Position numbers and translations under genes: made by a program. The notes below the pieces were generated by a model. That model did no database searches, had not been told where the DNA came from, and saw nothing but the letters and a program-made list of their open reading frames with translations. DNA of 42,484 bases. It comes from Gemmatimonadota bacterium. Its GTDB lineage: Bacteria; Gemmatimonadota; Gemmatimonadetes; Gemmatimonadales; GWC2-71-9. The DNA lies in the NCBI GenBank assembly GCA_039588295.1, contig JBDHAB010000024.1, positions 410 through 42,893 of the forward strand. Reading direction: 5' to 3'. Position 1 is the stretch's first letter. The number at the start of each line of letters is the position of its first letter. Positions 888 through 26,218 of this stretch are shown piece after piece.

Positions 888-1004
888 ATGGACCGACTCA
901 CCAACGGTACGGGCAACAACGCCTACAACACCCCGTGGGATTTGATCTGCAGCTTGCTGCCCACGGGTATCACCCCTAACAGCGCAGAGAGAGAGAGGAC
1001 ATGA
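888..1004 (+). CDS. Putative 38-aa leader peptide (MDRLTNGTGNNAYNTPWDLICSLLPTGITPNSAERERT)
   Basis: GGAGGT SD at 878-883; the stop overlaps the next start (ATGA at 1001-1004). No recognisable family. Confidence 0.45.
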   Translation: MDRLTNGTGNNAYNTPWDLICSLLPTGITPNSAERERT

Positions 1005-1774: not shown

Positions 1775-2142
1775 CCCCCGACGACATCATCACTCGGTGG
1801 CGCAGACGCCGCGACGAGTGGTGTCGGGTGCACGCATCCGTTGACGGCGCAGCACTCTGCGACGAGGTCATACGAGACATCGAGAGCTTGGCATCTGCTG
1901 ACGCCGACGCGGAACTCACCCTGGCGGAAGCCGCTCGGCTCTCTGGCTATTCCCGAGAGCATCTGGGACGCCTTGTCGCGGAGGGCACCATCCTCAACGT
2001 GGGCCGTCCTGGGGCTCCCCGAATTCGCCGAGGCGATCTTCCGCGCAAGCCCCTGCCGAAATCGTCCCACCCTATCCACATTTCAGGCACCCGCAAGGGT
2101 CGGATTGTGCGGTCAGTCGTGGAGGAAGGAGTTCCACGATGA
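1771..2142 (+). CDS. Excisionase-like HTH DNA-binding protein
   Basis: LTLAEAARLSGYSREHLGRLVAEGTI..V....RIRRGDL is a MerR/HTH_17-like pattern. Coupled by ATGA overlaps to the upstream ORF and the integrase. Confidence 0.7.
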   Translation: MTPDDIITRWRRRRDEWCRVHASVDGAALCDEVIRDIESLASADADAELTLAEAARLSGYSREHLGRLVAEGTILNVGRPGAPRIRRGDLPRKPLPKSSHPIHISGTRKGRIVRSVVEEGVPR

Positions 2143-3338
2143 CAGCACGCATGTGGAGTTACAGCGCGGGGGAGCGTGGACGGAACCGCGTTCGGGTGTT
2201 CACGAACCGTTGCGGCGTCTGTTACGTCGAGTGGTACGAACCCAATGAACACGGACGACCCGTGCCACGCCGAATGAGCCTCGGCCACCGTGACCGGCAA
2301 CGTGCTCGACGCGAGGCCGACCGGATGGCGACGATGATCGGCGAGGGGAACAGTGTCCCCGTTTATGATCGGCTCACCCTCCGCCAGCTCTTTGACAATT
2401 ATCAGCACGATGAATTGGTCCAGCGGAAGTCACCGCAGGAGCGGACCCACGACCGGCGGGCGATCCATCTACTGCTCACGGTCATCGGGCCCCAGACCCC
2501 TGTGATGAAGCTGGGCCGTCGTGAGTGGAATCAGTTTATCGCTGCCCGACGGGACGGGCTGGTCTCCACCCCGTCCGGCCAGACGCGAGCGGTGGGCGAG
2601 CGTGTGATCGCGCAGGACCTCAAAGTCCTGCGCACTGCGTTGCGGTGGGCCGTCGGGGCGAGGCTCATTCCGCGGGACCCACTGGATGGAGTCGGGGTGC
2701 GATTGCCCGCCAATCCGAGCCCGAATCGCCCGGTGATGGACGACGCCACATATCAGGCGTTGCTCCTGGTGGCCCCCCGGATCGACTGGCGCTTCGAGGT
2801 CGCACTCGTCCTCGCGCACGAGACCGGCCATCGGATCAACGCAATTCGGTTGCTGCGGTGGTCGGACCTGGACCTGGACAGAAAGACGATCCAGTGGCGC
2901 GCAGAGATGGATAAGACTGGACGGGAGCACATGACCCCACTTACATCGCGAGTCGTGGGGGTGTTGGAGCAAGTGCGGCGCACGCAGGGCCGCATCGGGG
3001 ATGGCTGGCTCCTACCGTCTCCGCGACAGCAAGCGGAGCCAGTGAGCAGGAAGACACTGCACACCTGGTTTCGCACCGCGCTCAAGCGGACCGGAGAAGA
3101 CAAGCAACCGGGACTCGGTTGGCATAGTCTCCGTCGGAAGTTCGCGACCGACTTGAAGAGCGCCCCACTGAAGGACGTGATGGAGCTCGGGGGCTGGCGG
3201 AGCCAAGAAACGGTGTTGGCGTATCAAGCGACCGATGTTGCGGCGATGCGGGAGGTCCTCGCCCGTCGCCAACCTACTCACAAATCCACTCACCGCGCTG
3301 CGCCCGCGCAAGAGGTAGGGCAGCGGAAGCCGCTGTAG
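2139..3338 (+). CDS. int: Tyrosine recombinase / phage-type integrase
   Basis: TGHRINAI (Arg I), DKT (Lys), HSLRR, LGGW and VLAY (Tyr). N-terminal arm-binding-like domain. SD GGAG upstream. Confidence 0.93.
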   Translation: MTARMWSYSAGERGRNRVRVFTNRCGVCYVEWYEPNEHGRPVPRRMSLGHRDRQRARREADRMATMIGEGNSVPVYDRLTLRQLFDNYQHDELVQRKSPQERTHDRRAIHLLLTVIGPQTPVMKLGRREWNQFIAARRDGLVSTPSGQTRAVGERVIAQDLKVLRTALRWAVGARLIPRDPLDGVGVRLPANPSPNRPVMDDATYQALLLVAPRIDWRFEVALVLAHETGHRINAIRLLRWSDLDLDRKTIQWRAEMDKTGREHMTPLTSRVVGVLEQVRRTQGRIGDGWLLPSPRQQAEPVSRKTLHTWFRTALKRTGEDKQPGLGWHSLRRKFATDLKSAPLKDVMELGGWRSQETVLAYQATDVAAMREVLARRQPTHKSTHRAAPAQEVGQRKPL

Positions 3339-3360
3339 AAGTGTAGTTTACGCGCGTTCG

Positions 3361-3447
3361 GGACAGGTGGCCGAGCGGCTGAAGGCACACGCCTGGAGAG
3401 CGTGTGAACGGGGAACCGTTCCGTGGGTTCGAATCCCACCCTGTCCG
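3361..3447 (+). tRNA. tRNA-Ser(GGA), long variable arm, CCA not directly encoded
   Basis: Acceptor GGACAGG/CCTGTCC, anticodon arm CACGC-CTGGAGA-GCGTG, T arm GTGGG-TTCGAAT-CCCAC, discriminator G followed by TCCA. Confidence 0.97.
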
Positions 3448-3861: not shown

Positions 3862-5787
3862 ATGACTGCATCGTCTACCACCACGCCTGCCAAGCAGAAG
3901 AAGAAATCCAAGGCCAAGGCATCTCCTGATAAAAAAGCCATCCTCGAGGTGGCCGAACACACGGTCGAAATCGTATCCGACCCGGGTGAGGGCGCCCAGA
4001 AGTGCGGTCAGATCTTCGGCCGCGTCTCCGCCCGGATGGGTAACGGGGTCTGGACCGTGGAGATCATTCCCGCTGAAATCCAGCCACCACCGCGCACGCC
4101 ACCCAGCGCTTCGGGCAACCGGATCCGCATCGGCACCAAGCCGGTCACCAACTGGGGCGACGCCGCGCACCTCGTGGTGGCGTTCAACGAACAGGTCCTG
4201 CTCCACCGGCACCGCCTCGGCGCGCTGTCCCAGGGATGCACGATCCTCGTCGAGAGCATGTGGGAGAATCACGAGGACGAGGATATCCGCAACGCCTGGG
4301 CTACCGCGATGGAAGAGGTGGCCGGCAACGACTACCGGTTCGTCAAGGTGCCCTTCGAGGAGCAGGCCTTGGCCGTCGTCGAGAACCCGCGGCGCGGCAA
4401 GAACATGTTCGCGCTCGGGATGCTGGCGAACATCTACTCGCGGGATCTCGAGATCATCAAAGACGTCATCACAAGCGAGTTCCGCAAGAAGGCCCCTGAA
4501 GTTGCCGAAGCGAACATCGCGCTCCTGGAGCTGGGCCACAAATGGGCGGAGGAAAACCTCGATTTCAAAGTGGACGTGGCGATCGAGGCGCCGGGCGTGC
4601 CGATGGTCGTGATGAACGGCAACCAGGCAATCGCGATCGGCTCGATCGCGGCGGGACTCGAGCTGTGCGCGATGTACCCCATTACGCCGGCGACCTCAGC
4701 GTCCCATTACCTGAGCGAGATCTTCGAGAACTTCGGCGGGATCGTGCATCAGGCGGAAGACGAGATCGCCGCCATTGGCGTGGCGGTCGGTGCCTCCTTC
4801 GCGGGCAAGGTCGCGTTCACGATCACCTCCGGGCCGGGCCTGGCCCTCAAGACCGAGTTCATCGGGCTCGCCGTCATGACCGAGACCCCACTCGTATTGG
4901 TGGACGTGCAACGCGGTGGTCCGAGCACGGGACTACCCACGAAGATCGAGCAGGGGGACCTGCTCGCTGCCATCTTCGGGCAGCCGGGTGACGCCCCCAA
5001 GGTCGTCATGGCACCGGCTACCATGGAGGAATGCTTCCTCTGCATGACCACGGCCCGGCGGATCGCCGACGCGTTCCGCTGCGTCGTCGTGGTCCTAACG
5101 GACGCGAACCTGGCCACTGGCGTGCAGCCATTCCCGCGGCCCAACGTGAGCCGCGACTGGATCGCTGCGCCGCTGGACCTGAGTACGGTCCCGAAAGGCC
5201 AGCGACCACTCGATTGGGACCCCAAGACTGGTCTGTCGCGCCGCATCATTCCTGGCCAGCAGAACGGGATGTTCCGTGCGACCGGCCTGTCGCACGACGA
5301 GGACAGCAAGATCGGGTACAGCCCGGATGTCCACGAGCGCGGCTGCGCCATGCGGGCACGCAAGATGGCGGTGTTGCAGCAGACACTGAAGCCGCCGAAG
5401 GTTCGGGGCGACGACGAGGGCGATCTGCTCGTGGTGGGCTGGGGCAGCACCATGGGCGCGATCGAAGAAGCCGTCGATCGTGCGCGCCAAGAAGGGCTCT
5501 CGGTGTCTTCCCTGCACCTCCGGTTCCTGTCCCCGCTGGAACCCGGCCTCAAGGAGATCTTCAGCCGGTTCAAGCAGGTGATGACCGTCGAGATCAATTA
5601 CTCGGACGATCCTGCAGCACCGTTCATCACCGATGAGAACCGCCGCCGCGGGCAGCTTTCCTGGCTGCTGCGTGCTACCACGTTGGTCGATGTCGACTGC
5701 TGGACACGCGTGCCCGGTGAGCCGCTGCAGCCCCGGCACATTCACGAGGCGATTCGGGGCTACATGCCCAATGGAGCCCAGTCATGA
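3862..5787 (+). CDS. korA: 2-oxoacid:ferredoxin oxidoreductase alpha subunit (gamma-alpha fusion, KorA/OorA-like)
   Basis: YPITPA, QAEDE, TSGPG and QRGGPSTGLPT motifs. The ATG at 3862 is preferred over the TTG at 3796. Confidence 0.92.
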   Translation: MTASSTTTPAKQKKKSKAKASPDKKAILEVAEHTVEIVSDPGEGAQKCGQIFGRVSARMGNGVWTVEIIPAEIQPPPRTPPSASGNRIRIGTKPVTNWGDAAHLVVAFNEQVLLHRHRLGALSQGCTILVESMWENHEDEDIRNAWATAMEEVAGNDYRFVKVPFEEQALAVVENPRRGKNMFALGMLANIYSRDLEIIKDVITSEFRKKAPEVAEANIALLELGHKWAEENLDFKVDVAIEAPGVPMVVMNGNQAIAIGSIAAGLELCAMYPITPATSASHYLSEIFENFGGIVHQAEDEIAAIGVAVGASFAGKVAFTITSGPGLALKTEFIGLAVMTETPLVLVDVQRGGPSTGLPTKIEQGDLLAAIFGQPGDAPKVVMAPATMEECFLCMTTARRIADAFRCVVVVLTDANLATGVQPFPRPNVSRDWIAAPLDLSTVPKGQRPLDWDPKTGLSRRIIPGQQNGMFRATGLSHDEDSKIGYSPDVHERGCAMRARKMAVLQQTLKPPKVRGDDEGDLLVVGWGSTMGAIEEAVDRARQEGLSVSSLHLRFLSPLEPGLKEIFSRFKQVMTVEINYSDDPAAPFITDENRRRGQLSWLLRATTLVDVDCWTRVPGEPLQPRHIHEAIRGYMPNGAQS

Positions 5788-6737
5788 TTCAACTCGGATG
5801 CTCATTGCTCGGGAGCTCGGTCGACGACGACCGCTCCTGGAGCATGGATGACTACGAAGCGGCCGTTCCCCGATGGTGCTCCGGCTGCGGCGATCACGCG
5901 GTCCTGAGCGCCGTGCAGCGTCTGCTCGCTGAAGAGCAGCTGCCGCCAGAGCAAACGGTGTTTGTGTCCGGCATCGGGTGCTCGAGCCGCTTTCCGCACT
6001 ACATCAACTCGTACGGCTTCCACGGGCTGCACGGCCGCGCGCTTCCAGTCGCGACGGGAGTGAAGCTGCGACGGCCCGACCTGCACGTGTTCGCGGTGAT
6101 GGGCGACGGCGATTGCTGCTCGATCGGCGCCGGCCATTGGATCCACACGACCCGCTACAACCCGAACATCGTCGCGCTCATGCTCGATAACGGGGTGTAC
6201 GGGCTCACCAAGAACCAGACGTCGCCGACGAGCCCCAAGGGGCTGAGGAGCAACACGCAGCCACGGGGCGCGTACCTCGACGCCATCAACCCAATCGCCA
6301 CGACGCTCGGTGTCGCCAACGCGTCGTTCGTCGCGCAGACCGGGGATTGGGTGCCGGACCATATCTATGAGACGATCAAGGCGGCGTTCCATCACGGAGG
6401 CTTCAGCTTCATTCGGATCTTGCAGCGCTGCCCGCAGTACACGGACAACCTGTTCCTCGACGCGATGCGGAATCCGGACACCATCGAGCTGATGGTGCAC
6501 CCGAAGGGGATCCGATCCGAGGACACCGAGCAGATCTACAAGAATCACGTGCACCACGACCCATCGGATCTGGTCAACGGGTTCAGACTCGCACAGATCG
6601 GCGACAAGATCCGACTCGGGTTGTTCTACCGCGACGAGCACACGCCGGTGTACGAGGAGGTGCGGAACGTGCCGACTCACACCGCCGACGAAAAGCTCGC
6701 GATTCTCAACGAGGAGCTGGACCGCTATGCCGTTTGA
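5784..6737 (+). CDS. korB: 2-oxoacid:ferredoxin oxidoreductase beta subunit (TPP-binding)
   Basis: WCSGCG, SGIGCSSR, LHGRA, GDGD...DNGVYGLTKNQ and QRCP motifs. Confidence 0.93.
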   Translation: MIQLGCSLLGSSVDDDRSWSMDDYEAAVPRWCSGCGDHAVLSAVQRLLAEEQLPPEQTVFVSGIGCSSRFPHYINSYGFHGLHGRALPVATGVKLRRPDLHVFAVMGDGDCCSIGAGHWIHTTRYNPNIVALMLDNGVYGLTKNQTSPTSPKGLRSNTQPRGAYLDAINPIATTLGVANASFVAQTGDWVPDHIYETIKAAFHHGGFSFIRILQRCPQYTDNLFLDAMRNPDTIELMVHPKGIRSEDTEQIYKNHVHHDPSDLVNGFRLAQIGDKIRLGLFYRDEHTPVYEEVRNVPTHTADEKLAILNEELDRYAV

Positions 6738-7749
6738 CGAACGAGTGGAGCGTGCGCTCGAAGCGCTGTCCGGCCAACGCGACGCCTTCCAATCGGCGCT
6801 CGGCACGACTGTCGAGCAGGTGCAGAGCTTTCTCGGCGAATACCAAGCGTCAGGGAACGGTCACCTGGACCGGATGGCCGCGGAGCTTGGGCCATTCGCG
6901 GCCGATCGGATCGACACGGAACGGTTGGGGAAGCTGTTTGGCAGCACGGTCAGCGTCGATCGGCTGACGTTGGAGACGATCGAGAAGGCGCGCGACACGA
7001 TGGCCGAGTTGGCCAAACGCAACCACGAGCTGTTCCTCGTGGACGTGACACCTGGTGGTGACCTCCGTACCGCGGTCGCCAGGGCACTGGAGGAGGTCGG
7101 CCGCGCCTTCGGAGCGGTGCGAATCTTCGAGCTCACCCGCTCCGGCAGCTACCACGGCAACGAGCACGCCCGTTCGCTTGGCTCGTTCCCATTCGTGAAA
7201 TGGAGCAAGGGCGAACGGCGTCTCGCACCGCCGCTAGTGGTGTTGGTCGACGGCGCGGACCTTCGGGCGGGGATGCTCGCAGAGTTCCTCGACGGATCGC
7301 AGAAGCTCGTGCTCGTGGTACGCGGCTCCTGTGCCCCTGCGCCGCTCGTACGCTTGATCACCCCGGGCACATTCGTCGTGCAAACCCACGACGCAAGCGG
7401 GCTCGAGCAGCTCGCGGCATTCCCAGGACCCGGAGTGGGTGCGCTGGTGCCCGATTCCGCCGCACGGTTTGTCCATGACCCGAGTGCCGGACCGGAAGTG
7501 TCGCAGCGGCTCACGGTCTCCTTCGTGCCGGAGCAGGAACCGCGGATGTCACTCGGTGGCATGAGCGGCAGCCAGCAAGCGGAAGAGCTGAGACAGCTCA
7601 AGGAGCTCGCCAGCCGACCGGCCGCAGCCACGGGCTCCGCAGCGGAAGGAGTCGTGGCGGCACCGAAGGCACCGCCACCCCGGATGGATCCGGTGGACAA
7701 GCTCGCGGCCTGGCTCCTCACGCAAGCGGACCTGTCGGATCTCGGGTAG
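6727..7749 (+). CDS. Uncharacterised 340-aa protein; degenerate paralog of the PFOR beta (TPP-binding) region
   Basis: SD GAGGAG at 6711-6716, overlaps korB. Ungapped similarity to the C-terminal part of 8607-13592 (see findings). Confidence 0.8.
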   Translation: MPFDERVERALEALSGQRDAFQSALGTTVEQVQSFLGEYQASGNGHLDRMAAELGPFAADRIDTERLGKLFGSTVSVDRLTLETIEKARDTMAELAKRNHELFLVDVTPGGDLRTAVARALEEVGRAFGAVRIFELTRSGSYHGNEHARSLGSFPFVKWSKGERRLAPPLVVLVDGADLRAGMLAEFLDGSQKLVLVVRGSCAPAPLVRLITPGTFVVQTHDASGLEQLAAFPGPGVGALVPDSAARFVHDPSAGPEVSQRLTVSFVPEQEPRMSLGGMSGSQQAEELRQLKELASRPAAATGSAAEGVVAAPKAPPPRMDPVDKLAAWLLTQADLSDLG

Positions 7750-7758: not shown

Positions 7759-8610
7759 ATGGAATTCACCGCCATCCTCGGCTCGGTCGCGATCTTGGGC
7801 GGCGTGGGATTCACGTTCGCCGGGCTGATCGCGCTGACGCATCGGAAGTTCAAGGTGTGGGAGGACCCGCGCATCGCGGGAGTCACCGACCTGCTTCCGG
7901 GCACCAACTGTGGTGCGTGCGGGCTCGCGGGATGCCACGCCTTCGCCGAGGCGCTGGTAGGAGGTGCCATACAGCCCGCCACGTGCACCGTGATGGGGGC
8001 CGACGATGTGGTCGACGTAGCCGACTACTTGGGTGTCGAGGCCGGCGAGGCCACCAAGCGGGTGGCACGGCTCCTGTGCGCAGGCGGCACCAACGTCGCG
8101 GTGCAGCAGGCCGACTACCTGGGCCTCGAGACCTGTAAGGCGGCCGCGGCGGTCGCGGGTGGCGGCAAGGGCTGCACGTGGGGGTGTCTGAGCCTCGCCG
8201 ACTGCGAGGTCGTCTGCGACTTCGACGCGATCTACATGAACCAGTACGGGCTTCCCGTCGTGATCCCCGACAAGTGCACGGCATGCGGGGACTGTGTGGA
8301 CGCCTGCCCGAAGGATCTGTTCACGCTCATGCCTCTCGACCAGAAGCTCCTGGTGCAGTGCAAGAGCGCGCTCGAGGGAGACGAGATCGAAGCGATGTGC
8401 AGGGTTGCCTGCACGGCCTGCGAACGGTGCGTGGCCGATGCGGCACCCGGTCTCATCGAGATCAGGGACGGGTTGGCGGTGGTGGATTACAGCAAGAATG
8501 ACTTGGCGAGTCCGGCGGCCATCGAACGATGCCCGACCGGCGCGATTGTCTGGGTTAACGGTGCGCAGTTCGCCGAGACCCGCAAGCCCCAGGAGAAAGC
8601 GGTCGCATGA
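7759..8610 (+). CDS. rnfB: Rnf complex subunit B (polyferredoxin type)
   Basis: N-terminal TM helix, LPGTNCGACGLAGC, GCLSLADCEVVC and CTACGDCVDACP. Confidence 0.93.
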   Translation: MEFTAILGSVAILGGVGFTFAGLIALTHRKFKVWEDPRIAGVTDLLPGTNCGACGLAGCHAFAEALVGGAIQPATCTVMGADDVVDVADYLGVEAGEATKRVARLLCAGGTNVAVQQADYLGLETCKAAAAVAGGGKGCTWGCLSLADCEVVCDFDAIYMNQYGLPVVIPDKCTACGDCVDACPKDLFTLMPLDQKLLVQCKSALEGDEIEAMCRVACTACERCVADAAPGLIEIRDGLAVVDYSKNDLASPAAIERCPTGAIVWVNGAQFAETRKPQEKAVA

Positions 8611-11600
8611 TGTTCAAGCGCAAAGAACACACACCTCCCGAGCCCAAGTATCCGGGTACCCCGACAGCCGACGACGGCACGGGCGCGGTCGTCCAGATGG
8701 AAACGGATGCGAGTGAGGGCGCCGGTGCCTACCCGATCACTCCGTCGACCCAGATGGGCGAGGGGTGGGCCGCCGCGGTCGCGGCGGGCAAGACCAATGT
8801 AAACGGCCGCCGGCTGCTGTTCTTCGAGCCCGAGGGAGAGCACGCCGCAGCGGCCGTAACGGCCGGGATGAGCATGGTCGGCCTCCGCGCGACCAACTTC
8901 TCCAGCGGTCAGGGCATTGCGTACATGCACGAGTCGTTGTACGCCGCAGCCGGTAAGCGGCTCACCTACGTGCTCAACATCGGCGCACGGGCCATGACCA
9001 AGCATGCGCTCAACGTGCATGCAGGGCATGACGACTACCACGCGGTCGACGACACTGGGTTCTTCCAGCTGTTCGCTAAGGACGCCCAAGAATCGGCCGA
9101 TCTCAATCTGATCGCGCACCGCGTGGCCGAACTCTCGCTCAACCCGGGCATTCTGGCACAGGACGGCTTTCTGACCACGCACGTCCTTGAGTCCTTCCGC
9201 ATGCCCGAGCGGGAGCTGGTCAAGGAGTTCCTCGGCGATCCGTCGGATATCATCGAGTCGCCGACGCCGGCACAGCGGTGGGTCTTCGGTGAAAAGCGGC
9301 GGCGTATTCCGGAGATGTTCGACCTGGATTATCCAGCCATGCTGGGCGTGGTACAGAACCAGGACAGCTATCAGCAGGGTGTCGCCGCACAGCGGCCGTT
9401 CTACTTCGACCATGTGGTCGACTTCACCGATCAGGCGATGGCCGAGTTTGCGGCCCTCACGGGGCGGCACTACGGCCGCGCCACCGGCTATCGGCTCGAC
9501 GATGCCGAGTGGGTACTCGCCGGTCAGGGGTCACTGGTCTCGAACGCGGAAGCGGTGTGCGACTACCTGCGTGAGACTCGCGGCCTCAAGGTTGGCGTCC
9601 TGAACATCACGATGTTCCGGCCCTTCCCCGCCGACGTGATCACCCATCTCGTCAAGGGAAAGCAGGCCGTCACCGTGCTCGAACGCGTGGACCAGCCGCT
9701 GGCGGTTGACCAGCCGCTCCTGCGTGAGATTCGCGCGTCGATGAGCAAGGCGCTCGAGAACGGGCGGGCCAAGGGCACGCCACCGCATGCCGGGGTCGCG
9801 GCCTGCCAGGCGCACGATGTACCGGAGTTCTATTCCGGGACGTATGGACTCGGGAGCCGCGATCTGCAACCGGGCGACCTGATTGCCGCCGTCGACAACA
9901 TGATCGAGGGCGGAACGCAGCGGCGCCAGTTCTACCTCGGCATCGATTTCGTGCGTGAGGGAACCAAGCTGCCAAAGCTTCAGATTTGGCAGGAGGAGCT
10001 GCTCGAGGCGTATCCGAACGTCAAGCATCTGTCGCTCCTCCCGTCCGAGGACGTGGACCTCATGCCGCCGGGCTCCATCTCGATCCGCATCCATTCGGTG
10101 GGTGGTTGGGGCGCCATCACCATGGGGAAGAACCTGGCGATGACGGCCTCCGAGTTGCTCGGCTTGAATATCAAGGCCAACCCCAAATACGGCTCGGAAA
10201 AGAAGGGTCAGCCCACGACGTTCTATGCGACTCTCGCGAAAGCGCCCATCCGGCTGAACTGCGAGCTCAAGCACGTGAACGTCGTGCTGTCACCAGACCC
10301 CAACGTGTTCCGTCACTCGAACCCGCTTGCGGGCCTCGAAGAGAACGGCGTGTTCGTGATACAGAACGACGGAACCCCCGAGGAACTGTGGAACAGTCTG
10401 CCGGCCGATGCGCAGCAGGCCGTCAAGGAGCGCAAGCTCCACGTCCACTGTCTCAACGCGTTCAAGATCGCCATGGAAGAGGCCAGCGATCCGGAGCTGC
10501 GCTACCGCATGCAGGGCGCAGCCTTCATGGGAGCGTTCTTCAAGGTCTCTCCGCTGATGGAGCGCGAAGGACTCACTGAAGAGACCCTGTTCGAGGGTAT
10601 CCGCAAACAGTTGCAGAAGAAGTTCGGGCATCTGGGCGAGCGCGTGGTGGAGGACAACCTTCGAGTGATCCGTCGCGGCTTCGATGAAGTCCTGACCGTG
10701 GACCACGAGGCCCTCGAGGTGAATCAGGACGCCGTGGCGATCCCACCCGAGATGCCCGCGATCCTCGACGGTTCGGAAGTTCGACCCGGTATCGGCAACC
10801 CCGGACGGTTCTGGGAGCAGGTGTGCTACCTCTACAAGACCGGTGACGACGGCATTGCCGATCCATTCGCCGCGTTGAGCGCGATCCCGGCGGCCACCAG
10901 CACGATTCGCGACATGACGGACGTGCGGTTCGAGGTCCCGGAGTTCATCGCGTCCAAGTGCACGGGCTGCGGCCAGTGCTGGATCCAGTGCCCGGACGCG
11001 GCCATCCCCGGCTTGGTGAGCGAAGTCGAAGACGTGATCAACGCCGGCATCAAGACCGTCTCGAACGGTCGGTCGTACGACCGGCTCGGACAGATCGTCA
11101 AGCACCTGGGCAACGAGTCCCGCAAAATCATGCGGGGTGTGCCGTTCAACGACTTCGCGTCCGTGCTATCTCAAGCATACAAGACGGTGGTCGACAAGCT
11201 GAAGCTCGATCCCGAGCGTCGCGCCGCGATGGACGAGGAGTTTGGGCCCGTGTACGCGGCGATCTCCGAGTTTCCACTCGCCAAAACGGGGCCGTTCTTC
11301 GACCTCCCCGAGACCGCGGAGAAGAACACGGGCGGGCTACTCTCAGTCACCATCAGCCCCGACGCGTGCAAGGGCTGCAACATCTGCGTGCAGGTCTGCC
11401 CCGACGAGGCGCTGATCACCATTCCGCAGACCGACGACGTCGTCGACAAGCTGCGCCGCAATTGGAAGCTGTGGGAGCACCTTCCCGACACGGACGATCG
11501 CTACATCAACGTGTCCGATATCGAGGAAGGGATCGGCGTGCTTCAGTCGCTGCTCCTCAAGAAGGACACGTACCGCTCCATGGCGGGCGGAGACGGCGCC

Positions 11601-13592
11601 TGCATGGGTTGTGGCGAGAAGACCGATGTGCACCTCGTCATGTCGGCGGTCAATGCGCTGATGATTCCGCGCGCCGAGCGATACGTCACCAAGCTCGATG
11701 GATTGATTACGGCGCTCGACGAGAAGGCAAGGAAGATCCTGTCATCCGATGCCGACCTGCACGAGCTAGGGGTCGGCGAGGGTAAGACCGACATCACGCT
11801 CGACGAAACGAAGAAGCCGGCCGTCGCGCGTATCACCAAGACGATCGACGAGCTCAAGGATCTACGGTGGCGCTACACTCAAGGCCCCACGGGCAAAGGG
11901 CGTTCGACGATGGGTATGGCGAACGCGACGGGCTGCTCGTCGGTGTGGGGCAGCACGTATCCGTACAACCCCTATCCGTTCCCGTGGGTCAACCATCTGT
12001 TTCAGGACGCTCCGTCCATCGCGATCGGCATTTTCGAAGGTCACATGCGCAAGATGGCCGACGGCTTCGTCGCCGTGCGACGCGCCGAGTTGGACGTGGC
12101 CGGTGAATACGATGCCGACGTGCACGAGCCGTTCTTCGTCCAATTCAACTGGCATCAGTTCACCGACGAAGAGTTCGCGATGTGCCCGCCGATCTTCGCG
12201 ACGGGCGGCGACGGCGCGATGCTGGACATCGGCTTTCAGAACCTCTCGCGACTCCTGGCGAGCGGGAAACCGATCCGCGTCATGGTGCTCGACACACAGG
12301 TGTACTCCAACACCGGCGGTCAGGCCTGCACCAGCGGCTTCATCGGTCAGGTGAGCGACATGGCGGCGTACGGCAAGGCGCAGCACGGTAAGGAGGAAAC
12401 CCGAAAGGAGTTGGCGCTGGTCACCATCGCGCACCGAAACGTGTTCGTGCTGCAGGCCTCACAGGCCAACCCATCACATCTCCTGGGCGGCGTGCTCAAG
12501 GGATTGCAGTCCCGCTTTCCAACGGTGCTGGCGTTGCACTGCCCCTGCCCGCCCGAACACGGACTCGGCGATGACCAGCCACCCGATGCGGCAAAGCTCT
12601 CGCTCGAGAGCCGCGCGTACCCGGTCCTGGTCTACGATCCGGCAGAGGGCGAGAAGATGTCGGAACGGTTGAGCCTGGACGGCAATCCGTCTATGGACGA
12701 CACCTGGCCTGAGTACGACCTCACGTATCTCGATGACGATAGCCAGGAACACACGATGACGTTGCCGGTCACAATTGCCGATTGGGCGGCGACGGAAGCA
12801 CGGTTCAAGAAACACTTCAAGCGTATCAAGGGGGACGGGGACGAGCTCATACCGTTCCATGAGTTCCTCGAGCTGCCGCTGGAAGACCGTGCGGAGAGAC
12901 AGCCGTTCATCTACGCGCTCGAGCGCGACCGCACGCTCGGACGGTTGTCGGTCTCGCCGGAGATGGTGCAGCTTGCCGAGGACCGGCTGGCGGTGTGGAG
13001 CCTGCTCAAGGAGATGGCTGGGCTCGACGAGGAGGTATCCGCCGAGGCCGAGGCAGGATTCGCGCAGGAGGCGGAATCCCTCAAAGCCGAGTACGAGGCG
13101 AAGTTGACCGATCTCAAGGCGCGCTACCCACAGATCATCGCGCGACGACTCGCCGAGGGGCTCGTACGTGCCGGCAACGGTCAGCGCACGATCGCCGATC
13201 TGCTCTCGGAGGTGCAAACGATGTCGGGGCTCGCGCCGATTCAGTTCGACGCGGGCGGCTCCGCCGCTCCGGCGGCGGGAGGTACGGCAACCGCCGTGGC
13301 CACGGCACCTGCGCCAGCGGTCGTGGAGGAGGAAGAAGGGCTAGCGATGGAGCCGTACATCGACTCGGCGCGATGTACGACCTGTAACGAGTGCACGAAC
13401 ATCAACAACAAGCTATTCGCGTACGACGACAAGAAGAAGGCATTCATCAAAGATCCCAAAGCCGGAACCTTCAAGCAGCTCGTGACGGCTGCCGAGCGCT
13501 GCCCCGTGCGGATCATCCACCCGGGCACGCCGCTCAATTCGAAGGAGAAGGGCCTCGACAAGCTGGTGAAGCGGGCGGAGCCCTTCAACTAG
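8607..13592 (+). CDS. Giant (1661 aa) single-chain pyruvate:ferredoxin oxidoreductase-like protein with C-terminal fused ferredoxin
   Basis: YPITPS, EGEH, YGLGSRD, YGSEKKG, two CxxCxxCxxxCP motifs, GACMGCGE, GCSSVWG, GGDGAM, VYSNTGGQ and terminal CTTCNEC...CP. Confidence 0.93.
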   Translation: MMFKRKEHTPPEPKYPGTPTADDGTGAVVQMETDASEGAGAYPITPSTQMGEGWAAAVAAGKTNVNGRRLLFFEPEGEHAAAAVTAGMSMVGLRATNFSSGQGIAYMHESLYAAAGKRLTYVLNIGARAMTKHALNVHAGHDDYHAVDDTGFFQLFAKDAQESADLNLIAHRVAELSLNPGILAQDGFLTTHVLESFRMPERELVKEFLGDPSDIIESPTPAQRWVFGEKRRRIPEMFDLDYPAMLGVVQNQDSYQQGVAAQRPFYFDHVVDFTDQAMAEFAALTGRHYGRATGYRLDDAEWVLAGQGSLVSNAEAVCDYLRETRGLKVGVLNITMFRPFPADVITHLVKGKQAVTVLERVDQPLAVDQPLLREIRASMSKALENGRAKGTPPHAGVAACQAHDVPEFYSGTYGLGSRDLQPGDLIAAVDNMIEGGTQRRQFYLGIDFVREGTKLPKLQIWQEELLEAYPNVKHLSLLPSEDVDLMPPGSISIRIHSVGGWGAITMGKNLAMTASELLGLNIKANPKYGSEKKGQPTTFYATLAKAPIRLNCELKHVNVVLSPDPNVFRHSNPLAGLEENGVFVIQNDGTPEELWNSLPADAQQAVKERKLHVHCLNAFKIAMEEASDPELRYRMQGAAFMGAFFKVSPLMEREGLTEETLFEGIRKQLQKKFGHLGERVVEDNLRVIRRGFDEVLTVDHEALEVNQDAVAIPPEMPAILDGSEVRPGIGNPGRFWEQVCYLYKTGDDGIADPFAALSAIPAATSTIRDMTDVRFEVPEFIASKCTGCGQCWIQCPDAAIPGLVSEVEDVINAGIKTVSNGRSYDRLGQIVKHLGNESRKIMRGVPFNDFASVLSQAYKTVVDKLKLDPERRAAMDEEFGPVYAAISEFPLAKTGPFFDLPETAEKNTGGLLSVTISPDACKGCNICVQVCPDEALITIPQTDDVVDKLRRNWKLWEHLPDTDDRYINVSDIEEGIGVLQSLLLKKDTYRSMAGGDGACMGCGEKTDVHLVMSAVNALMIPRAERYVTKLDGLITALDEKARKILSSDADLHELGVGEGKTDITLDETKKPAVARITKTIDELKDLRWRYTQGPTGKGRSTMGMANATGCSSVWGSTYPYNPYPFPWVNHLFQDAPSIAIGIFEGHMRKMADGFVAVRRAELDVAGEYDADVHEPFFVQFNWHQFTDEEFAMCPPIFATGGDGAMLDIGFQNLSRLLASGKPIRVMVLDTQVYSNTGGQACTSGFIGQVSDMAAYGKAQHGKEETRKELALVTIAHRNVFVLQASQANPSHLLGGVLKGLQSRFPTVLALHCPCPPEHGLGDDQPPDAAKLSLESRAYPVLVYDPAEGEKMSERLSLDGNPSMDDTWPEYDLTYLDDDSQEHTMTLPVTIADWAATEARFKKHFKRIKGDGDELIPFHEFLELPLEDRAERQPFIYALERDRTLGRLSVSPEMVQLAEDRLAVWSLLKEMAGLDEEVSAEAEAGFAQEAESLKAEYEAKLTDLKARYPQIIARRLAEGLVRAGNGQRTIADLLSEVQTMSGLAPIQFDAGGSAAPAAGGTATAVATAPAPAVVEEEEGLAMEPYIDSARCTTCNECTNINNKLFAYDDKKKAFIKDPKAGTFKQLVTAAERCPVRIIHPGTPLNSKEKGLDKLVKRAEPFN

Positions 13593-13598: not shown

Positions 13599-14927
13599 AT
13601 GCCTCGCCGCATGAGGTTCCGCCACGGGGTGCACCCCCCTGAGCTCAAGGAACTGACTCAGGGGGTAGCGATTCGTCGCATGCCATTCCCCGATGAGGTC
13701 GTGCTGCCGCTCAGTCAACATACGGGGAAACCGGCCAAGCCCATCGTGCGGGCGGGCGACCGTGTGGAACGTGGTGACCTGATCGGTGAGGCCGATGGGT
13801 TCATCTCGTCACCGATCCACGCATCGGCATCTGGAACAGTCACCGGCATCGATCTCTGGCCGCATCCTACCGGGAGCTACCAGCCGGCCATCCGCATCGA
13901 CGTAGAGCCCTACTCCGCGCAGGTACCCCGTAAACGGATCATTCCCGACTGGCAGCACTTGAGCCGTGACGAGCTGGTGGAGGCTGTGCGCCACGCGGGC
14001 GTTGTTGGTTTGGGCGGCGCGGCGTTCCCGACGCACGTAAAGCTCGTCCCACCGAAGGATGTCGAGATCGACACCATTGTGATCAACGGGTGCGAGTGTG
14101 AGCCCTACCTCACCACGGACCATCGCACGATGGTGGAGTATCCCGAGCGGGTCCAACTCGGGATCCGGTTGATGATGCGGTGCCTTGGTGTCGATCGCGC
14201 GATGATCGGGATCGAGAAGAACAAGCCGGATGCAATCGAAGCCCTCCGAGCCACACTGCCGACGGACCTCGACGTCACGCTTCACCCGCTGACCGTGAAG
14301 TATCCGCAGGGCGCGGAGAAGATGCTCATCAAGGCGCTCCTCGGTCGCGAAGTGCCGTCCGGCAAGCTGCCGCTGAACGTCGGGGTGGTGGTGCACAACG
14401 TCGCATCGGTCGCCACGATCGCCGAAGTGTTCGAGACCGGTCTTCCCCTCATCGAGCGCATCGTCACGGTCACCGGGCGCGGAATCCGGCGGCCCTCCAA
14501 CTTGATCGTTCCCGTCGGTACGAAAGTGGGCGACTTGATCGAGGCCTGTGAAGGCGTGACCGACGACGCCCGCGAAATCGTATTCGGCGGTCCGATGATG
14601 GGCGCAGCCGTTGGCGGCCTCGAGATCCCCGTGATGAAGGGTACCACCGGTGTCATCGTCCTGACCGAGGCCGAAGTGAAGCCACAGAAGTCGTACCCGT
14701 GCATCCGCTGCGGCCACTGCCTCGACGCGTGTCCCGTGTTCCTCAACCCGCAGGCGCTCGGCCAACTCGCGTTGGCGGACCGATACGACGAGATGGCAAC
14801 GGACTTTCACCTCATGGATTGCATGCTCTGTGGGTGCTGTGGGTACACCTGCCCGTCGAACATCCCGCTCACGCAGCTGTTCGCGATGGCCAAGAACCAC
14901 CTGAAGAAGCATCCGGTGGCAGCGTGA
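13599..14927 (+). CDS. rnfC: Rnf complex subunit C
   Basis: GVHP, GVVGLGGAAFPTHVK, NGCECEPYLT, GGPMMG, CIRCGHCLDACP and CMLCGCCGYTCP. Confidence 0.96.
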   Translation: MPRRMRFRHGVHPPELKELTQGVAIRRMPFPDEVVLPLSQHTGKPAKPIVRAGDRVERGDLIGEADGFISSPIHASASGTVTGIDLWPHPTGSYQPAIRIDVEPYSAQVPRKRIIPDWQHLSRDELVEAVRHAGVVGLGGAAFPTHVKLVPPKDVEIDTIVINGCECEPYLTTDHRTMVEYPERVQLGIRLMMRCLGVDRAMIGIEKNKPDAIEALRATLPTDLDVTLHPLTVKYPQGAEKMLIKALLGREVPSGKLPLNVGVVVHNVASVATIAEVFETGLPLIERIVTVTGRGIRRPSNLIVPVGTKVGDLIEACEGVTDDAREIVFGGPMMGAAVGGLEIPVMKGTTGVIVLTEAEVKPQKSYPCIRCGHCLDACPVFLNPQALGQLALADRYDEMATDFHLMDCMLCGCCGYTCPSNIPLTQLFAMAKNHLKKHPVAA

Positions 14928-15940
14928 CCGGTTCGCGCCTGTTGATCACGGCCTGGCCGCATCTCGCGGAGAAGGACACGACTCCGCAGATCATGTGGAC
15001 CGTCAACGCGACCCTGCTGCCGATCGTCGTCGTGGCCACGTACTACTTCGGACCGAGTGCGCTCTTGGTCATTGGGGCGAGCCTGGCGGGATGCCTTGCC
15101 ACCGAATGGGCGTTCGGCAAGCACGGCGCGCTGACCGACGGCTCCGCGGTGATCACGGGACTCCTCCTCGGACTCACGCTCCCGGCGGGGCTCCCGATGT
15201 GGATGGCGTTCGTCGGCGGCGTGTTCGCGATCGGGTTCGGCAAGCTCATTTTCGGCGGGCTGGGACAGAACGTGTTCAACCCCGCCTTGCTCGGCCGAGC
15301 GTTCCTGCAGGCGTCGTTTCCGGTGGCACTGACGACGTGGCCCGTGATTCGGGAAAGCTGGTGGCAGCTCCGCGGTGACAATCTCGCGTTGCCACTGATG
15401 AGCGCGCGGGAAGTGGACGTCATGACCACCGCCACGCCGCTGGGGCTCCAGAAGTTCGAGCAGACCACGACGGACCTGTGGCAGCTGATGGTCGGGGCCA
15501 CCGAGGGATCGCTCGGTGAGACGGCGGGCATTGTCATCCTGCTCTGCGGCGCCTATCTCGCATGGCGCAAGTACCTCAACTGGCGCATCCCGATCTCGAT
15601 CTTCCTGACGGTCGCCGTGATCGCGGGTGGACTCCACCTGTTGGACCCCGTGCGCTACCCGGACTCGCTGTTCATGCTGTTCTCGGGCGGTCTGATGCTC
15701 GGCGCCGTCTACATGGCGACGGACATGGTGACCTCACCCGTCACGAACCGGGGATCGTGGGTGTACGGCTTCGGGATCGGGGCCCTCGTCGTCATCATCC
15801 GACTGTGGGGCGGGCTCGCCGAAGGCGTGATGTACGCGATTCTCCTCATGAATGCGCTGGTGCCGTTCATCAATCGGGCAACCCAGCCCACGGTCTTCGG
15901 CACGCAGCCGGTCAAGGCGCACGCCGGGGAGGGCGCGTGA
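14924..15940 (+). CDS. rnfD: Rnf complex subunit D
   Basis: GTG start overlaps the rnfC stop. FGGLGQNVFNPA, FMN site TTATPL, GSLGET and MATDMVTSP. Confidence 0.95.
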   Translation: MTGSRLLITAWPHLAEKDTTPQIMWTVNATLLPIVVVATYYFGPSALLVIGASLAGCLATEWAFGKHGALTDGSAVITGLLLGLTLPAGLPMWMAFVGGVFAIGFGKLIFGGLGQNVFNPALLGRAFLQASFPVALTTWPVIRESWWQLRGDNLALPLMSAREVDVMTTATPLGLQKFEQTTTDLWQLMVGATEGSLGETAGIVILLCGAYLAWRKYLNWRIPISIFLTVAVIAGGLHLLDPVRYPDSLFMLFSGGLMLGAVYMATDMVTSPVTNRGSWVYGFGIGALVVIIRLWGGLAEGVMYAILLMNALVPFINRATQPTVFGTQPVKAHAGEGA

Positions 15941-16608
15941 GCGGGCCGGTGCAGCTCGAAGTCCGCCGGGAGGTGCCGGCGTGGCGACTGCTGGTCACGC
16001 TGGGCCTGGGGGGGGCGCTGGCCGGGTTCGTCCTCGTGTTCGTCTTTCAGGCCACCGCACCGACGATCGAGCGCAACAAGGCCGAGCGCCTGGCAGCGGC
16101 AGTGCAAGAGGTGCTGAAGGCACCCCATCACTATGACACGCTCTACGTGCTCGACGATCAGCTCGCCAGCCAGCCACCGGAAGGAACCGACCCCAAGCGC
16201 CTGGAGCAGATTTACCGGGGCTACCGCGAGGATGGCACGCCAATCGGCTTTGCGATCGCCTCCGCGGAAGCGGGGTTTCAAGACATCATCCGCGTGATCT
16301 TCGGCTACGACGACGCTAATAGCTCGCTGCTTGGTATGAAGGTGCTCGAAAGCAAAGAGACCCCCGGACTGGGTGACAAGATCGAAAAGGACACGAGCTT
16401 CGTCTATCAGTTCGATGGCGTGCGGGCCCCGCTCGCGGGGGTCAAGGCCCGCCAGGCAACCGGCGATCCGCACGAGATTGACATGATCACGGGAGCGACG
16501 ATCTCGTCGCGGACCGTTATCAAGATCATCAACAACGCCCTCACGCGGCTGGGCCCCATGCTGGAGGCGCACACCGCCACCGTGGTTGCCCAGGAGGCCG
16601 GACGATGA
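15937..16608 (+). CDS. rnfG: Rnf complex subunit G
   Basis: GTG start overlaps the rnfD stop. N-terminal TM, ETPGLG and FMN site ITGATISS. Confidence 0.94.
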   Translation: MSGPVQLEVRREVPAWRLLVTLGLGGALAGFVLVFVFQATAPTIERNKAERLAAAVQEVLKAPHHYDTLYVLDDQLASQPPEGTDPKRLEQIYRGYREDGTPIGFAIASAEAGFQDIIRVIFGYDDANSSLLGMKVLESKETPGLGDKIEKDTSFVYQFDGVRAPLAGVKARQATGDPHEIDMITGATISSRTVIKIINNALTRLGPMLEAHTATVVAQEAGR

Positions 16609-17270
16609 GCCCCAGGGTGACCACGGCGCAGCACGATTTCTTCCGCGGTATTTGGAAGGAGAACCCGGTCCTGATCCAGATGTTGGGACTGTGCCCCGCC
16701 CTCGCGGTCACCAATACGGTGGAGAACGCGCTCGTGATGGGAATCGCGACGTTCTTCGTTCTGACGGGCTCCAGCCTCTTGGTCTCGCTGGTCAAGAAGC
16801 TCATCCCCAATGAAGTGCGGATCTCGACCTACATCCTGATCATCGCAACGTTCGTGACCGTGGCCGATATGACGCTCGAGGCGCTCGTCCCCGACATTCA
16901 CAAAGCCCTGGGCGCGTTCGTCGCTCTCATCGTGGTCAATTGCATGATCCTGAGCCGGCAAGAAGCCTTTGCCGCAAAGCACCCCGTCGGCAGATCCTTG
17001 TTGGACGCGTTCGGGACGGGGTTCGGGTTCATCATCGCCATGCTGCTCATGGGAGCCGTGCGGGAGGTCCTCGGCAACGGAACGTTCCTCGGAATGAAGG
17101 TGATTCCCGGGCCGTTCGAGCCGTGGGTGATCTTCATTCTCCCGCCCGGTGGGTTCCTCACGCTTGGATTCTGGCTCCTCCTGTTCGGCTGGCTCGAGAA
17201 GCGACGGACCGAGCGGGCCAAGGTACGGGAGTGGCCTCACGGTGTTGCCGCCGAGCGGGAGGCAGCATGA
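16605..17270 (+). CDS. rnfE: Rnf complex subunit E
   Basis: GIWKENP...LGLCPALAV, LIVVNC, REVLGNG and PPGGF. Confidence 0.95.
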   Translation: MSPRVTTAQHDFFRGIWKENPVLIQMLGLCPALAVTNTVENALVMGIATFFVLTGSSLLVSLVKKLIPNEVRISTYILIIATFVTVADMTLEALVPDIHKALGAFVALIVVNCMILSRQEAFAAKHPVGRSLLDAFGTGFGFIIAMLLMGAVREVLGNGTFLGMKVIPGPFEPWVIFILPPGGFLTLGFWLLLFGWLEKRRTERAKVREWPHGVAAEREAA

Positions 17271-17848
17271 TGGGCGAGCTCTTCTGGATCCTGCTGTCCG
17301 CGATGGTGGTGAACAACTTCACCCTGTACTACTTCCTCGGCCTGTGTCCGTTCATGGGCGTGTCAGCTCGCGTGGCAACCGCATTGCGGTTGGGACTCGC
17401 CAACATCTTCGTGCTCACCATCACGTCGCTCTGCGCTTCGTTCCTGAACGCGTTCATCCTGCCGTACGCCCCATACCTGCGGTTGATCTCGTTCATCGTC
17501 GTCGTCGCCTCCCTGGTACAAATCGTGGAGATGGTCATCAAGAAAGTCAGCCCCGTGCTGTTCCGGCAGCTCGGCATCTACCTGCCGCTCATCACTACAA
17601 ACTGCGCGATCCTTGGCCTGGCGATCTTCCAGACCAACCGTGGATACAACTTCTTTGAAGGACTGTTCTTCGCGCTGGGTGGGGGCCTCGGGCTCACGCT
17701 CGCCTTGGTGCTCATGGCCTCGATCCGCGAGGCCACCGAGGTGGCGGACATCCCGTCGCTCGCCAAGGGCATGGCGCTCGTTCTGATCATCGCCGGCAGC
17801 CTGTCGCTCGCGTTCATGGGTTTTGCCGGACTGTTGAGCTCGGCATGA
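17267..17848 (+). CDS. rnfA: Rnf complex subunit A
   Basis: VNNF..YFLGLCPFMGVS and LGIYLPLITTNCAILG. ATG overlaps the rnfE stop. Confidence 0.95.
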   Translation: MMGELFWILLSAMVVNNFTLYYFLGLCPFMGVSARVATALRLGLANIFVLTITSLCASFLNAFILPYAPYLRLISFIVVVASLVQIVEMVIKKVSPVLFRQLGIYLPLITTNCAILGLAIFQTNRGYNFFEGLFFALGGGLGLTLALVLMASIREATEVADIPSLAKGMALVLIIAGSLSLAFMGFAGLLSSA

Positions 17849-18012
17849 GTGAGATTCTCGGCGTTCTCGGTGTGGTCGTGCTGTTCGTGACCTTCGGATT
17901 GCTGCACCGGAACAGCCGGTCGGATCGCTGCCAGACCTGCTCGCACACGGCCGTGGGGCGGGACTGCTCATGCGATCTCATTCACGATCTCTCGGAGTCG
18001 TCGCATGGATGA
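17845..18012 (+). CDS. 55-aa single-TM Cys-rich peptide (NqrM-like architecture), absent from the ORF track
   Basis: MSEILGVLGVVVLFVTFGLLHRNSRSDRCQTCSHTAVGRDCSCDLIHDLSESSHG. ATGA overlap with rnfA and 8-nt overlap with apbE, exactly filling the gap. Confidence 0.75.
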   Translation: MSEILGVLGVVVLFVTFGLLHRNSRSDRCQTCSHTAVGRDCSCDLIHDLSESSHG

Positions 18013-19003
18013 CCGTCACCGTTTGACGCTGCGCTACCCGTCACGTCGTGAGGTGATCGCGCTCGGTGTAGGCGCATTCGTTGTCGCCGCGGTTCCGTTC
18101 GCCCGGAGCCGGCGCGCGAGACTCGTGCGACGCACCGTGCCGACCATGGGAACGCTCGGCGAGATCGGGGTCGTGCATCGCGATCCCCAATACGCACACG
18201 CGGCAATCGATGCCGCGATCGAGCAGTTGCAGATGGTCGAGCGACGGATGACGTGGTTCACCACCACCTCCGAAGTCGGTCGGGTCAATCAGCGGGCAGC
18301 CGTGGATGCGGTACCGGTGTCCAGGCCCACACTCGAGGTGCTCGAAGAGGCGCTCCGTTGGGCGGAATCGAGCCATGGGGCATTCGATCCGTGCTTGGGG
18401 CGAGCGACCGCGCTGTGGGATGTCGGGCATCGCAGCATGCCGCCGGCAGCGGACGCGGTTCGTCAGCTGGCGGGTCGCCGGTTGTACCGCGCGCTCGACC
18501 TGGACCATCGGGCCGACGGCGGGCGGATTCGGTTCACGGATGCCGATGCATCGCTGGACCTGGGTGGCATCGGAAAGGGTTACGCTGTGGATCGGGCGGT
18601 TGCGGCGCTCCGGGAATGGGGCATCACGAACGGTCTGGTCAACGTGGGCGGCGATCTGTACGCCCTAGGTACGTCGGAGGACGGAGATCCGTGGAACGTC
18701 GGGATCCGGTCTCCGTGGGAGCCCGACCGCGTGGCGGAAAAGCTCGAGGTCGGCGACGGGGCCGTCGCCACCTCAGGCGATTACCTCCAGTACTTCCAGC
18801 ATGGTGGCGGCCGGTTCCATCACTTGCTCGACCCAGCCACGGGAGCGCCGCGCCAGGCACGCATCCATAGCGTCACCGTACGGGCTGATGCCTGCATGAC
18901 GGCCGATGCCGCTGCGACAGCCGTGTTCGGAATGGAGTCGCCAGCCGCCACACGGCTGCTGCGGCGTGCGGCGCCGGATGCGCAGCTGGTAAGCGCCATA
19001 TGA
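18005..19003 (+). CDS. apbE: FAD:protein FMN transferase with Tat-type signal
   Basis: TMGT, GAFDP, DLGGIGKGYAVD, GGD, ATSGDY, HLLDPATG and ADAAATA. SRREVI plus hydrophobic stretch at the N-terminus. Confidence 0.95.
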   Translation: MDDRHRLTLRYPSRREVIALGVGAFVVAAVPFARSRRARLVRRTVPTMGTLGEIGVVHRDPQYAHAAIDAAIEQLQMVERRMTWFTTTSEVGRVNQRAAVDAVPVSRPTLEVLEEALRWAESSHGAFDPCLGRATALWDVGHRSMPPAADAVRQLAGRRLYRALDLDHRADGGRIRFTDADASLDLGGIGKGYAVDRAVAALREWGITNGLVNVGGDLYALGTSEDGDPWNVGIRSPWEPDRVAEKLEVGDGAVATSGDYLQYFQHGGGRFHHLLDPATGAPRQARIHSVTVRADACMTADAAATAVFGMESPAATRLLRRAAPDAQLVSAI

Positions 19004-26188: not shown

Positions 26189-26218
26189 AAGTTAGGATCA
26201 CCCAGCAACCGCTGTCAA
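26189..26218 (-). promoter_or_regulatory. Putative sigma70 promoter for the CTD-like gene
   Basis: TTGACA-N18-TAACTT on the minus strand, overlapping the selB stop. Confidence 0.5.

Follow-up and report, generated by a model that had tools for sequence, protein, structure and literature searches.

A putatively dead relative of pyruvate:ferredoxin oxidoreductase domain VI, encoded between korAB and rnf genes in Gemmatimonadota, is predicted to dock on KorA

Here we examine a 42,484-nucleotide stretch of a Gemmatimonadota bacterium (GenBank assembly GCA_039588295.1, contig JBDHAB010000024.1, positions 410 to 42,893; hereafter the window), which carries a tightly packed operon in the order korA, korB, orf340, rnfB, a gene for a 1661-residue pyruvate:ferredoxin oxidoreductase (PFOR), rnfC-D-G-E-A and apbE. 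Our subject is orf340, whose product is homologous to the thiamine diphosphate (TPP, also ThDP)-binding domain VI of the giant PFOR, has lost the TPP/Mg and 4Fe-4S ligands of that domain, holds a fixed place after korB and co-occurs with one KorA subfamily. We predict that it binds KorA through an N-terminal arm and propose, with moderate confidence, that it is a non-catalytic third subunit that tethers KorAB to the PFOR-Rnf module. The features of the operon are as follows.

3862..5787, forward strand: korA, alpha subunit of a two-subunit 2-oxoacid:ferredoxin oxidoreductase (OFOR); TIGR03710 above cut-off, 6n2n_A the closest solved chain.
Near 5014-5073, 5140-5160, 5371-5400 and 5521-5541, forward strand: predicted contact patch within korA, from complex prediction and subfamily residue comparison.
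5784..6737, forward strand: korB, beta subunit, TPP and proximal-cluster motifs intact.
6727..7749, forward strand: orf340 (the 'X' subunit), 340 residues, cofactor-less derivative of giant-PFOR domain VI.
6871..6939, forward strand: orf340 arm, residues 49-71, conserved ELGxFAxGRIDxxRF, predicted KorA-binding surface.
7087..7539, forward strand: orf340 core, residues 121-271, degenerate ThDP PP-domain homologous to PFOR 1147-1364.
7687..7725, forward strand: orf340 tail helix, DPVDKLAAWLL, which follows a flexible linker and is a candidate for docking on the PFOR/Rnf module.
7759..8610, forward strand: rnfB-like polyferredoxin gene, a library match.
8607..13592, forward strand: giant PFOR gene, 1661 residues, catalytic motifs intact.
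13599..19003, forward strand: rnfC, rnfD, rnfG, rnfE, rnfA and apbE, library matches except rnfD and rnfA.

The korA reading frame opens at 3796; we infer a start at 3862, from which KorA residues are numbered. The orf340 start overlaps the korB stop by 11 nucleotides and has a GAGGAG site upstream. The giant PFOR carries YPITP at 8730, CMGC at 11601, GCSS at 11931, GGDGAML at about 12204, YSNTGGQ at 12303 and CPCPPEHG at 12540; its helical stalk ends in YPQIIARRLAEGLV (13125-13175), and a C-terminal Fer4_13 ferredoxin begins at 13350. The names of rnfD and rnfA are our assumption, taken from position and the usual order of rnf genes. A search for sigma-70-like promoters found none, and terminator-like sites were no commoner than chance. 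The named strain Gemmatirosa kalamazoonensis has the identical gene set and order.

Present in one copy in its own genome, orf340 has no family match in Pfam or NCBIfam, and PDB sequences gave chance matches only. We count it as a real family despite the absent Pfam and NCBIfam match because 1546 homologues were recovered among 8000 candidates scored, forming 597 clusters at 50% identity; its closest relatives, at up to 74% identity, lie in Gemmatimonadota genomes. An S41 peptidase identity was also considered, and was rejected with ESM Atlas matches of at most 0.79, below the lead threshold.

The first-pass annotation of this locus had read orf340 as a dead paralogue of the TPP domain of PFOR, pairing FGAVRIFELT (from 7108) with FVAVRRAELD (from 12066), and both the coordinates and the reading are upheld, the latter by profile comparison, fold search and motif counts. 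Pairwise BLASTP against the giant PFOR is marginal (26.6 bits, E 0.005), and an initial comparison of shallow profiles gave little signal (probability 34%, P 4e-4), the relationship becoming clear only after diverse homologues had been added. With 146 diverse orf340 homologues set against 50 giant PFORs, the profile alignment proposed in that annotation as a check is significant (probability 92.5%, P 4.8e-7, score 64.4, with 19.3 for a reversed profile and 28.8 for the best of 40 block shuffles) and joins orf340 121-271 to PFOR 1147-1364; deeper alignments of the core gave P 4.3e-10. All four segment pairs named earlier fall within this one collinear alignment. Its description as essentially ungapped fits the first segment nearly, while the remainder needs deletions of about 32, 6, 13 and 10 residues in orf340. 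Profiles of KorB, KorA, RnfB and the N-terminal half of PFOR gave no significant match to orf340, and neither did the profile of the dead full-length PFORs described below. In 10 of the 53 positive genomes the orf340 profile also retrieves giant PFORs as second matches.

Structure points the same way. Prediction with AlphaFold gave a model of orf340 with a predicted local distance difference test score (pLDDT) of 84, and a Foldseek search ranked PFOR first, though at E 5e-3, with nothing at E <=0.001. VIA-align placed 6cin_A at the top (Z 8.3, root mean square deviation 6.6, 194 aligned, chain range 807-1170), at a Z near the level that VIA calls common, and the fold evidence for domain VI identity, taken alone, is moderate. 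A model of PFOR 985-1540, recognised as domain VI by fold search (E 3e-15), corresponds to the orf340 model element by element and in order, long N-terminal helices included; missing from orf340 are the GCSS strand-helix, the YSNTGGQ loop, the helices past the last cluster cysteine and a beta-rich insertion. In the profile alignment orf340 retains an insertion specific to the giant PFOR subfamily. Domain VI of the single-chain PFORs of Moorella thermoacetica (6CIN) and Desulfovibrio africanus (1B0P/2C3Y), which came top in both fold searches, has the same fold and element order. Compared with these solved domains orf340 is stand-alone, about 10% identical, without GDG, the YxNTGGQ loop or proximal-cluster cysteines, and extended by an N-terminal helical arm and a tail helix. 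We regard its identity as a cofactor-less derivative of domain VI of the giant PFOR as confirmed.

The loss of cofactor sites was counted in 150 orf340 homologues, with 50 giant PFORs and 99 KorBs for comparison. YxNTGGQ and CxGCGE occur in none of the 150, in line with what the first-pass annotation had said of orf340, whereas its statement that GDG is lacking must be softened, the motif being degraded and not erased: at columns 174-176, aligned to GDG, GDG itself is found in 0/150 and VDG in 73/150, and G176 is retained in 149/150. Cysteines average 1.3 per protein, where a proximal 4Fe-4S cluster takes four as ligands, and the single Cys column above 8% is position 202 (33%). The three motifs are intact in 48-49 of the 50 PFORs and 98-99 of the 99 KorBs. 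A conserved intact gene that encodes an enzyme fold stripped of its catalytic residues agrees with the definition of a pseudoenzyme, and by its sequence orf340 would be one. That the protein keeps a vestigial ligand pocket, senses a metabolite or nucleotide and so regulates KorAB is brought to mind by the retention of G176 and of D178 (135/150) at the former diphosphate site. A conserved glycine and helix-cap residues would be expected from the fold alone, however; furthermore, the Mg-binding Asp column holds D in just 88/150, and the Asn-bearing loop is shortened to 8 residues in 148/150 with any Asn there in 7/150. We consider a sensory role highly improbable.

Searching longer proteins with orf340 returned one match, P0267 (800 residues, E 7e-3), which is 28% identical to PFOR 999-1661, has lost the cofactor motifs and has kept the C-terminal ferredoxin. 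Such long X proteins (700-800 residues, dead domain VI plus ferredoxin) have named members in Woeseiaceae and other Gammaproteobacteria and occupy the slot of orf340, with korB upstream at 65/69 and rnfB downstream at 68/72 testable loci. The profiles of orf340 and long X match over the N-terminal arm (P 1.2e-9) and over the whole (P 3.9e-18), and no similarity of the arm to PFOR was detectable (P 0.045). Both the arm (49-71) and the ferredoxin-bearing long form are additions to what the first-pass annotation had described. Some long X frames reach about 1290 residues, with about 500 extra N-terminal residues (L177:6437-10321, L178:6514-10383, L180:9940-13818 and L181:9877-13824, our labels L denoting loci), and at one locus (L202:5128-7934) a 2.8-kb stretch lies between korB and the long X gene.

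Three arrangements recur among 40 regions from two other phyla, which were hand-picked and are picks rather than a census: orf340 with an active, ferredoxin-bearing PFOR (type A, 9 loci); long X with a dead PFOR (type B, 10 loci); and korAB with long X and no PFOR or rnf genes after it (type C, 5 loci, with L166 in addition). Type B dead-PFOR loci comprise L085-L163, L177-L183, L191, L192 and L202. The 37 complete PFOR genes counted at the metagenome loci all lack YPITP, CxGCGE, YxNTGGQ and the terminal ferredoxin (0/37 each), and all keep both domain V cluster motifs (37/37). Giant PFORs without an X gene nearby were found at L164, L172 and L174-L176. One of these lies on plasmid pPP1 of Persicobacter psychrovividus (L172:8446-20484), where rnfCDGEA and a displaced rnfB come after the PFOR and 25 kb contain neither korAB nor an X gene. 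Type A varies in L007, where the rnfB match is short and no PFOR follows, and in L047, without rnfB between orf340 and PFOR. In L204-L207 the PFORs come in two parts, of about 650 and 510 residues, a division that may resemble that of the two-subunit Magnetococcus marinus enzyme.

Gene order for orf340 was counted over the 80 best loci, of which 78 were testable on each side: korB lies upstream at 76/78 and rnfB downstream at 77/78, and the two loci without korB upstream look like contig-end effects. Across 301 genomes of the phylum, orf340 occurs in 53. The KorA subfamily of the operon (>=55% identity) occurs in 55 genomes that include all 53; of the other two, one (L166) has a long X gene after korB and the second (L234) is cut by a contig end. 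X remains beside korAB at the 6 loci where PFOR and rnf genes do not come after it, and follows korB wherever the contig shows it, and 16 KorAB paralogues of another subfamily have no X-like gene in the stretches examined. The host itself has a second KorAB without an X gene (G000:C45, L233) and a SucA above its family cut-off (G000:C3:76363-79941), so the operon is not its sole route for 2-oxoglutarate.

The giant PFOR is a second candidate partner. The dead domain VI of orf340 could pair with PFOR domain I or VI and replace one protomer of the dimer as a scaffold or inhibitor, and in favour of this are its derivation from the giant PFOR subfamily with the family-specific insertion kept, the presence of the giant PFOR (>=54% identity, 54 of 301 genomes) in 52 of the 53 orf340 genomes, and the near invariance across homologues of two helices, LAEFLDG and PAPLVRLITPG, whose PFOR counterparts we take to lie near the dimer axis. 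Set against these, giant PFORs stand without X nearby at the five loci given above, X is found without a PFOR neighbour and regularly follows korB where contigs allow this to be seen, and the arm is common to all X forms and not detectably to PFOR. Such pairing is, in our judgement, improbable. Heterodimerisation with PFOR had been one of two roles offered in the first-pass annotation; the other, a link between KorAB and the complex, is the better supported, by gene order, co-occurrence, complex prediction with KorA and a patch specific to the KorA subfamily.

Since X accompanies korAB even at loci where the operon has been split, complex prediction was aimed at KorAB, using KorA 246-641, KorB 16-317 and orf340 1-298. 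This multimer prediction, also among the checks proposed earlier, placed the orf340 arm on KorA with interaction prediction scores from aligned errors (ipSAE) of 0.74, 0.74 and 0.72, the best of three controls reaching 0.00; the mark is attained by 116/157 solved and 2/215 mismatched pairs in a calibration that is only roughly applicable here. The runs agree in >=76% of contacts with partner pLDDT >=77. The confident interface brings orf340 49-71 against KorA 385-404, 427-433, 456-458, 504-513 and 554-560, and mean conservation is 0.72 in the arm but 0.41 over the remainder of residues 1-110. No confident orf340-KorB contact was predicted, and a control with KorB kept and KorA replaced gave 0.00, which is no evidence against KorB binding. 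Since the arm is specific to the X family, it is unlikely that the prediction recalls a solved alpha-beta interface. The KorA surface involved also differs between subfamilies: X-linked KorAs have W433 (98/99), L458 (89/99), F555 (98/99) and T397 (74/99), where X-less paralogues have L433 (14/16), A458 (16/16), Y555 (13/16) and E397 (16/16), with a further difference of T508 to D. A permutation test over 7 columns gave P 0.006, to be read with the 16 X-less KorAs being close kin and the permutation pool taking in buried columns. The arm is thus predicted by the model to dock on KorA domains I/II.

At the other end of orf340 the alanine/proline linker and short helix noted earlier are borne out, residues 301-319 being of low confidence and 322-333 helical in the model, and an LAxWLL-like tail is present in 146/150 homologues. 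This tail, DPVDKLAAWLL, resembles a helix, EAVDRLxxxL, that precedes the ferredoxin linker of long X proteins (profile P 0.0098) and that is found in 11/11 long X proteins of the Rnf-operon type and 0/6 from korAB-X-only loci. At the corresponding place the giant PFOR has a YPxxVARRLAEGL helix, and the dead PFORs finish on such a helix, even with a shortened stalk. In addition, a lone giant PFOR (63%) in a complete genome without orf340 (L164:13114-17760, genome G134) ends just before the tail helix and ferredoxin. As for the ferredoxin, each of the operon types examined has a single tethered, single-cluster domain: type A loci carry it on 47/48 complete PFORs and 0/150 orf340 proteins, and type B loci carry it on X in 80/80 loci, a count that partly reflects selection as these loci were found partly via ferredoxin-domain patterns, and on 0/37 dead PFORs. 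One homologue of 457 residues outside the set of 150, P0142, runs from an orf340 core in register into a PFOR-type stalk and ferredoxin; as a single sequence, it could be a missing link, or else the product of a deletion or of faulty assembly. The only link to PFOR or Rnf that was found for orf340 is an indirect one, by way of this tail helix.

These observations also bear on a simpler role, in which orf340 on KorA serves to stabilise, assemble or regulate the enzyme, for instance as an oxygen shield for the proximal cluster, with no tethering and with a tail that self-associates. KorA indeed gives the only predicted interface, X is kept with korAB at the 6 loci without following PFOR or rnf genes, and the SucA and other E1 dehydrogenases of the host suggest life with some oxygen. 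The ferredoxin on long X forms points instead to electron transfer; the tail helix is missing in the korAB-X-only clade; and the matching helix still forms the very end of the dead PFORs, even where the stalk is shortened. We judge a purely stabilising role rather unlikely, though less so than pairing with PFOR.

We thus return to tethering as the role we prefer. Two-subunit OFORs have no domain V and only the proximal cluster, according to the accessible text of PMC13768988, and because this is its only cluster KorAB depends on a ferredoxin from elsewhere. That ferredoxin was probably part of the ancestral X and carried on a tether, an arrangement which the 700-800-residue forms retain. Having lost it, orf340 would keep KorAB close to the ferredoxin that PFOR carries on its tether, its tail helix docking through the flexible linker on the matching PFOR stalk helix or else on a subunit of Rnf. 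RnfB could then receive electrons from 2-oxoglutarate and pyruvate without a free carrier, or the flow could run in reverse for carboxylation, the direction and the KorAB substrate both being presumed. In a single assembly X would grip KorA, the tail helices would join the KorAB and PFOR halves, and the lone ferredoxin would serve RnfB. A more ambitious version would make the products of the operon a single supercomplex anchored in the membrane and working as a hard-wired 2-oxoacid:NAD+ ion pump: orf340 would clamp KorAB, its tail would lock onto the PFOR stalk, and one ferredoxin on its tether would move back and forth between two carboxylases and RnfB. Across phyla, parts derived from PFOR would have been reduced step by step to scaffolds and wires (a domain VI that is dead and may or may not have ferredoxin; a dead full-length PFOR keeping only domain V clusters). 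This version we advance tentatively, as a possibility with somewhat less than even prospects.

Several points weigh against the tethering role, beside the limits on fold scores, selection and kinship given above. The 6 helix-less X proteins form one clade, so that the contrast in the tail helix amounts to one event; in profile comparison the orf340 tail and the PFOR helix show no significant similarity (P 0.089); and the lone giant PFORs of L172 and L174 retain the helix without an X gene nearby. In the best tree of the core, orf340 and long X are not grouped together and orf340 sits on a long branch at an open fork, a joint clade being allowed by the approximately unbiased test (p 0.42). Co-occurrence across the phylum cannot pick the partner, orf340 accompanying the giant PFOR nearly as tightly as KorA. 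The complex run was unlike the calibration set (three chains, custom alignments) and the modelled complex contained neither KorA domain III nor the second alpha-beta protomer nor the tail of orf340, which means that the patch might be covered in the tetramer. Finally, the whole case is computational.

Among known systems, the closest solved relatives of the KorA and KorB of the operon are the (alpha-beta)2 OFOR and OGOR (2-oxoglutarate:ferredoxin oxidoreductase) enzymes of Magnetococcus marinus (6N2N) and Sulfolobus tokodaii (5B46/5B48); these have two subunits, whereas the KorA subfamily studied here has a distinct surface patch and an X gene after korB. The full Rnf gene set (RnfABCDGE) is present in the operon. 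Five-subunit PFORs of Aquifex and Hydrogenobacter likewise have an extra subunit, epsilon, which in the accessible text of PMC13768988 has an unknown role and no counterpart among the seven domains of PFOR; orf340 instead derives from domain VI, and the two are set apart by description alone. Identity of X with the PFOR beta' of M. marinus was considered and set aside, the recombinant alpha-beta pair being active with three clusters in the available part of PMC12337175. A possible relative occurs in the Riftia symbiont Ca. Endoriftia, where a 'PFOR-like ferredoxin' (L0Y14_RS16070, 'possible PFOR') follows KorA(3) RS16060 and KorB(3) RS16065 by locus tag, and where the expression of RS16060, RS16065 and RS16070 falls together (log fold changes of -2.62, -2.57 and -1.91), as given in the accessible part of PMC11636981; by name and position it may well belong to the X family. 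Tubeworm-symbiont korAB, por and rnf genes are co-located according to supplementary note 4 of PMC6315080, and neither the portion available of that paper nor that of PMC11636981 describes a dead subunit or lost catalytic residues. The accessible sections of a review of Rnf (PMC12174285) describe no built-in OFORs or PFOR-derived subunits, and exchange between OFORs and Rnf is thought to run via soluble ferredoxins (see PMC13768988 and PMC12174285). In the literature covered, which includes the accessible parts of PMC3534657 and bioRxiv 10.64898/2026.01.22.701106 and takes in few subscription papers, an orf340-type protein is not described.

The surroundings of the operon contain further features. 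Just upstream, window positions 77-3447 hold a fragmentary resolvase, a pair of small unknown genes and a tyrosine integrase that ends beside a tRNA-Ser(GGA) at 3361-3447, indicating the edge of an integrated element. Right after apbE, positions 19185-20949 encode an extracytoplasmic function sigma factor, an anti-sigma-like product and a protein that contains a secretin N-terminal-like domain. Further along lie SelB, the selenocysteine elongation factor (26215-28392), and a 100-base tRNA-Arg called by ARAGORN (41403-41502), which overlaps the start region of a phosphotransferase system IID frame and is possibly spurious.

If the proposed role is correct, orf340 would represent an undescribed coupling of tricarboxylic acid cycle carboxylases to an ion pump, by way of a pseudo-enzyme subunit through which a two-subunit OFOR is fixed to PFOR-Rnf, in Gemmatimonadota, in several other phyla and probably in tubeworm symbionts. 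A family of over 1500 proteins now labelled 'hypothetical' would gain a role that is open to testing and for which interface residues can be named. Furthermore, many genes annotated as PFOR or ferredoxin in such operons are catalytically dead, which affects metabolic reconstructions of the organisms that carry them.

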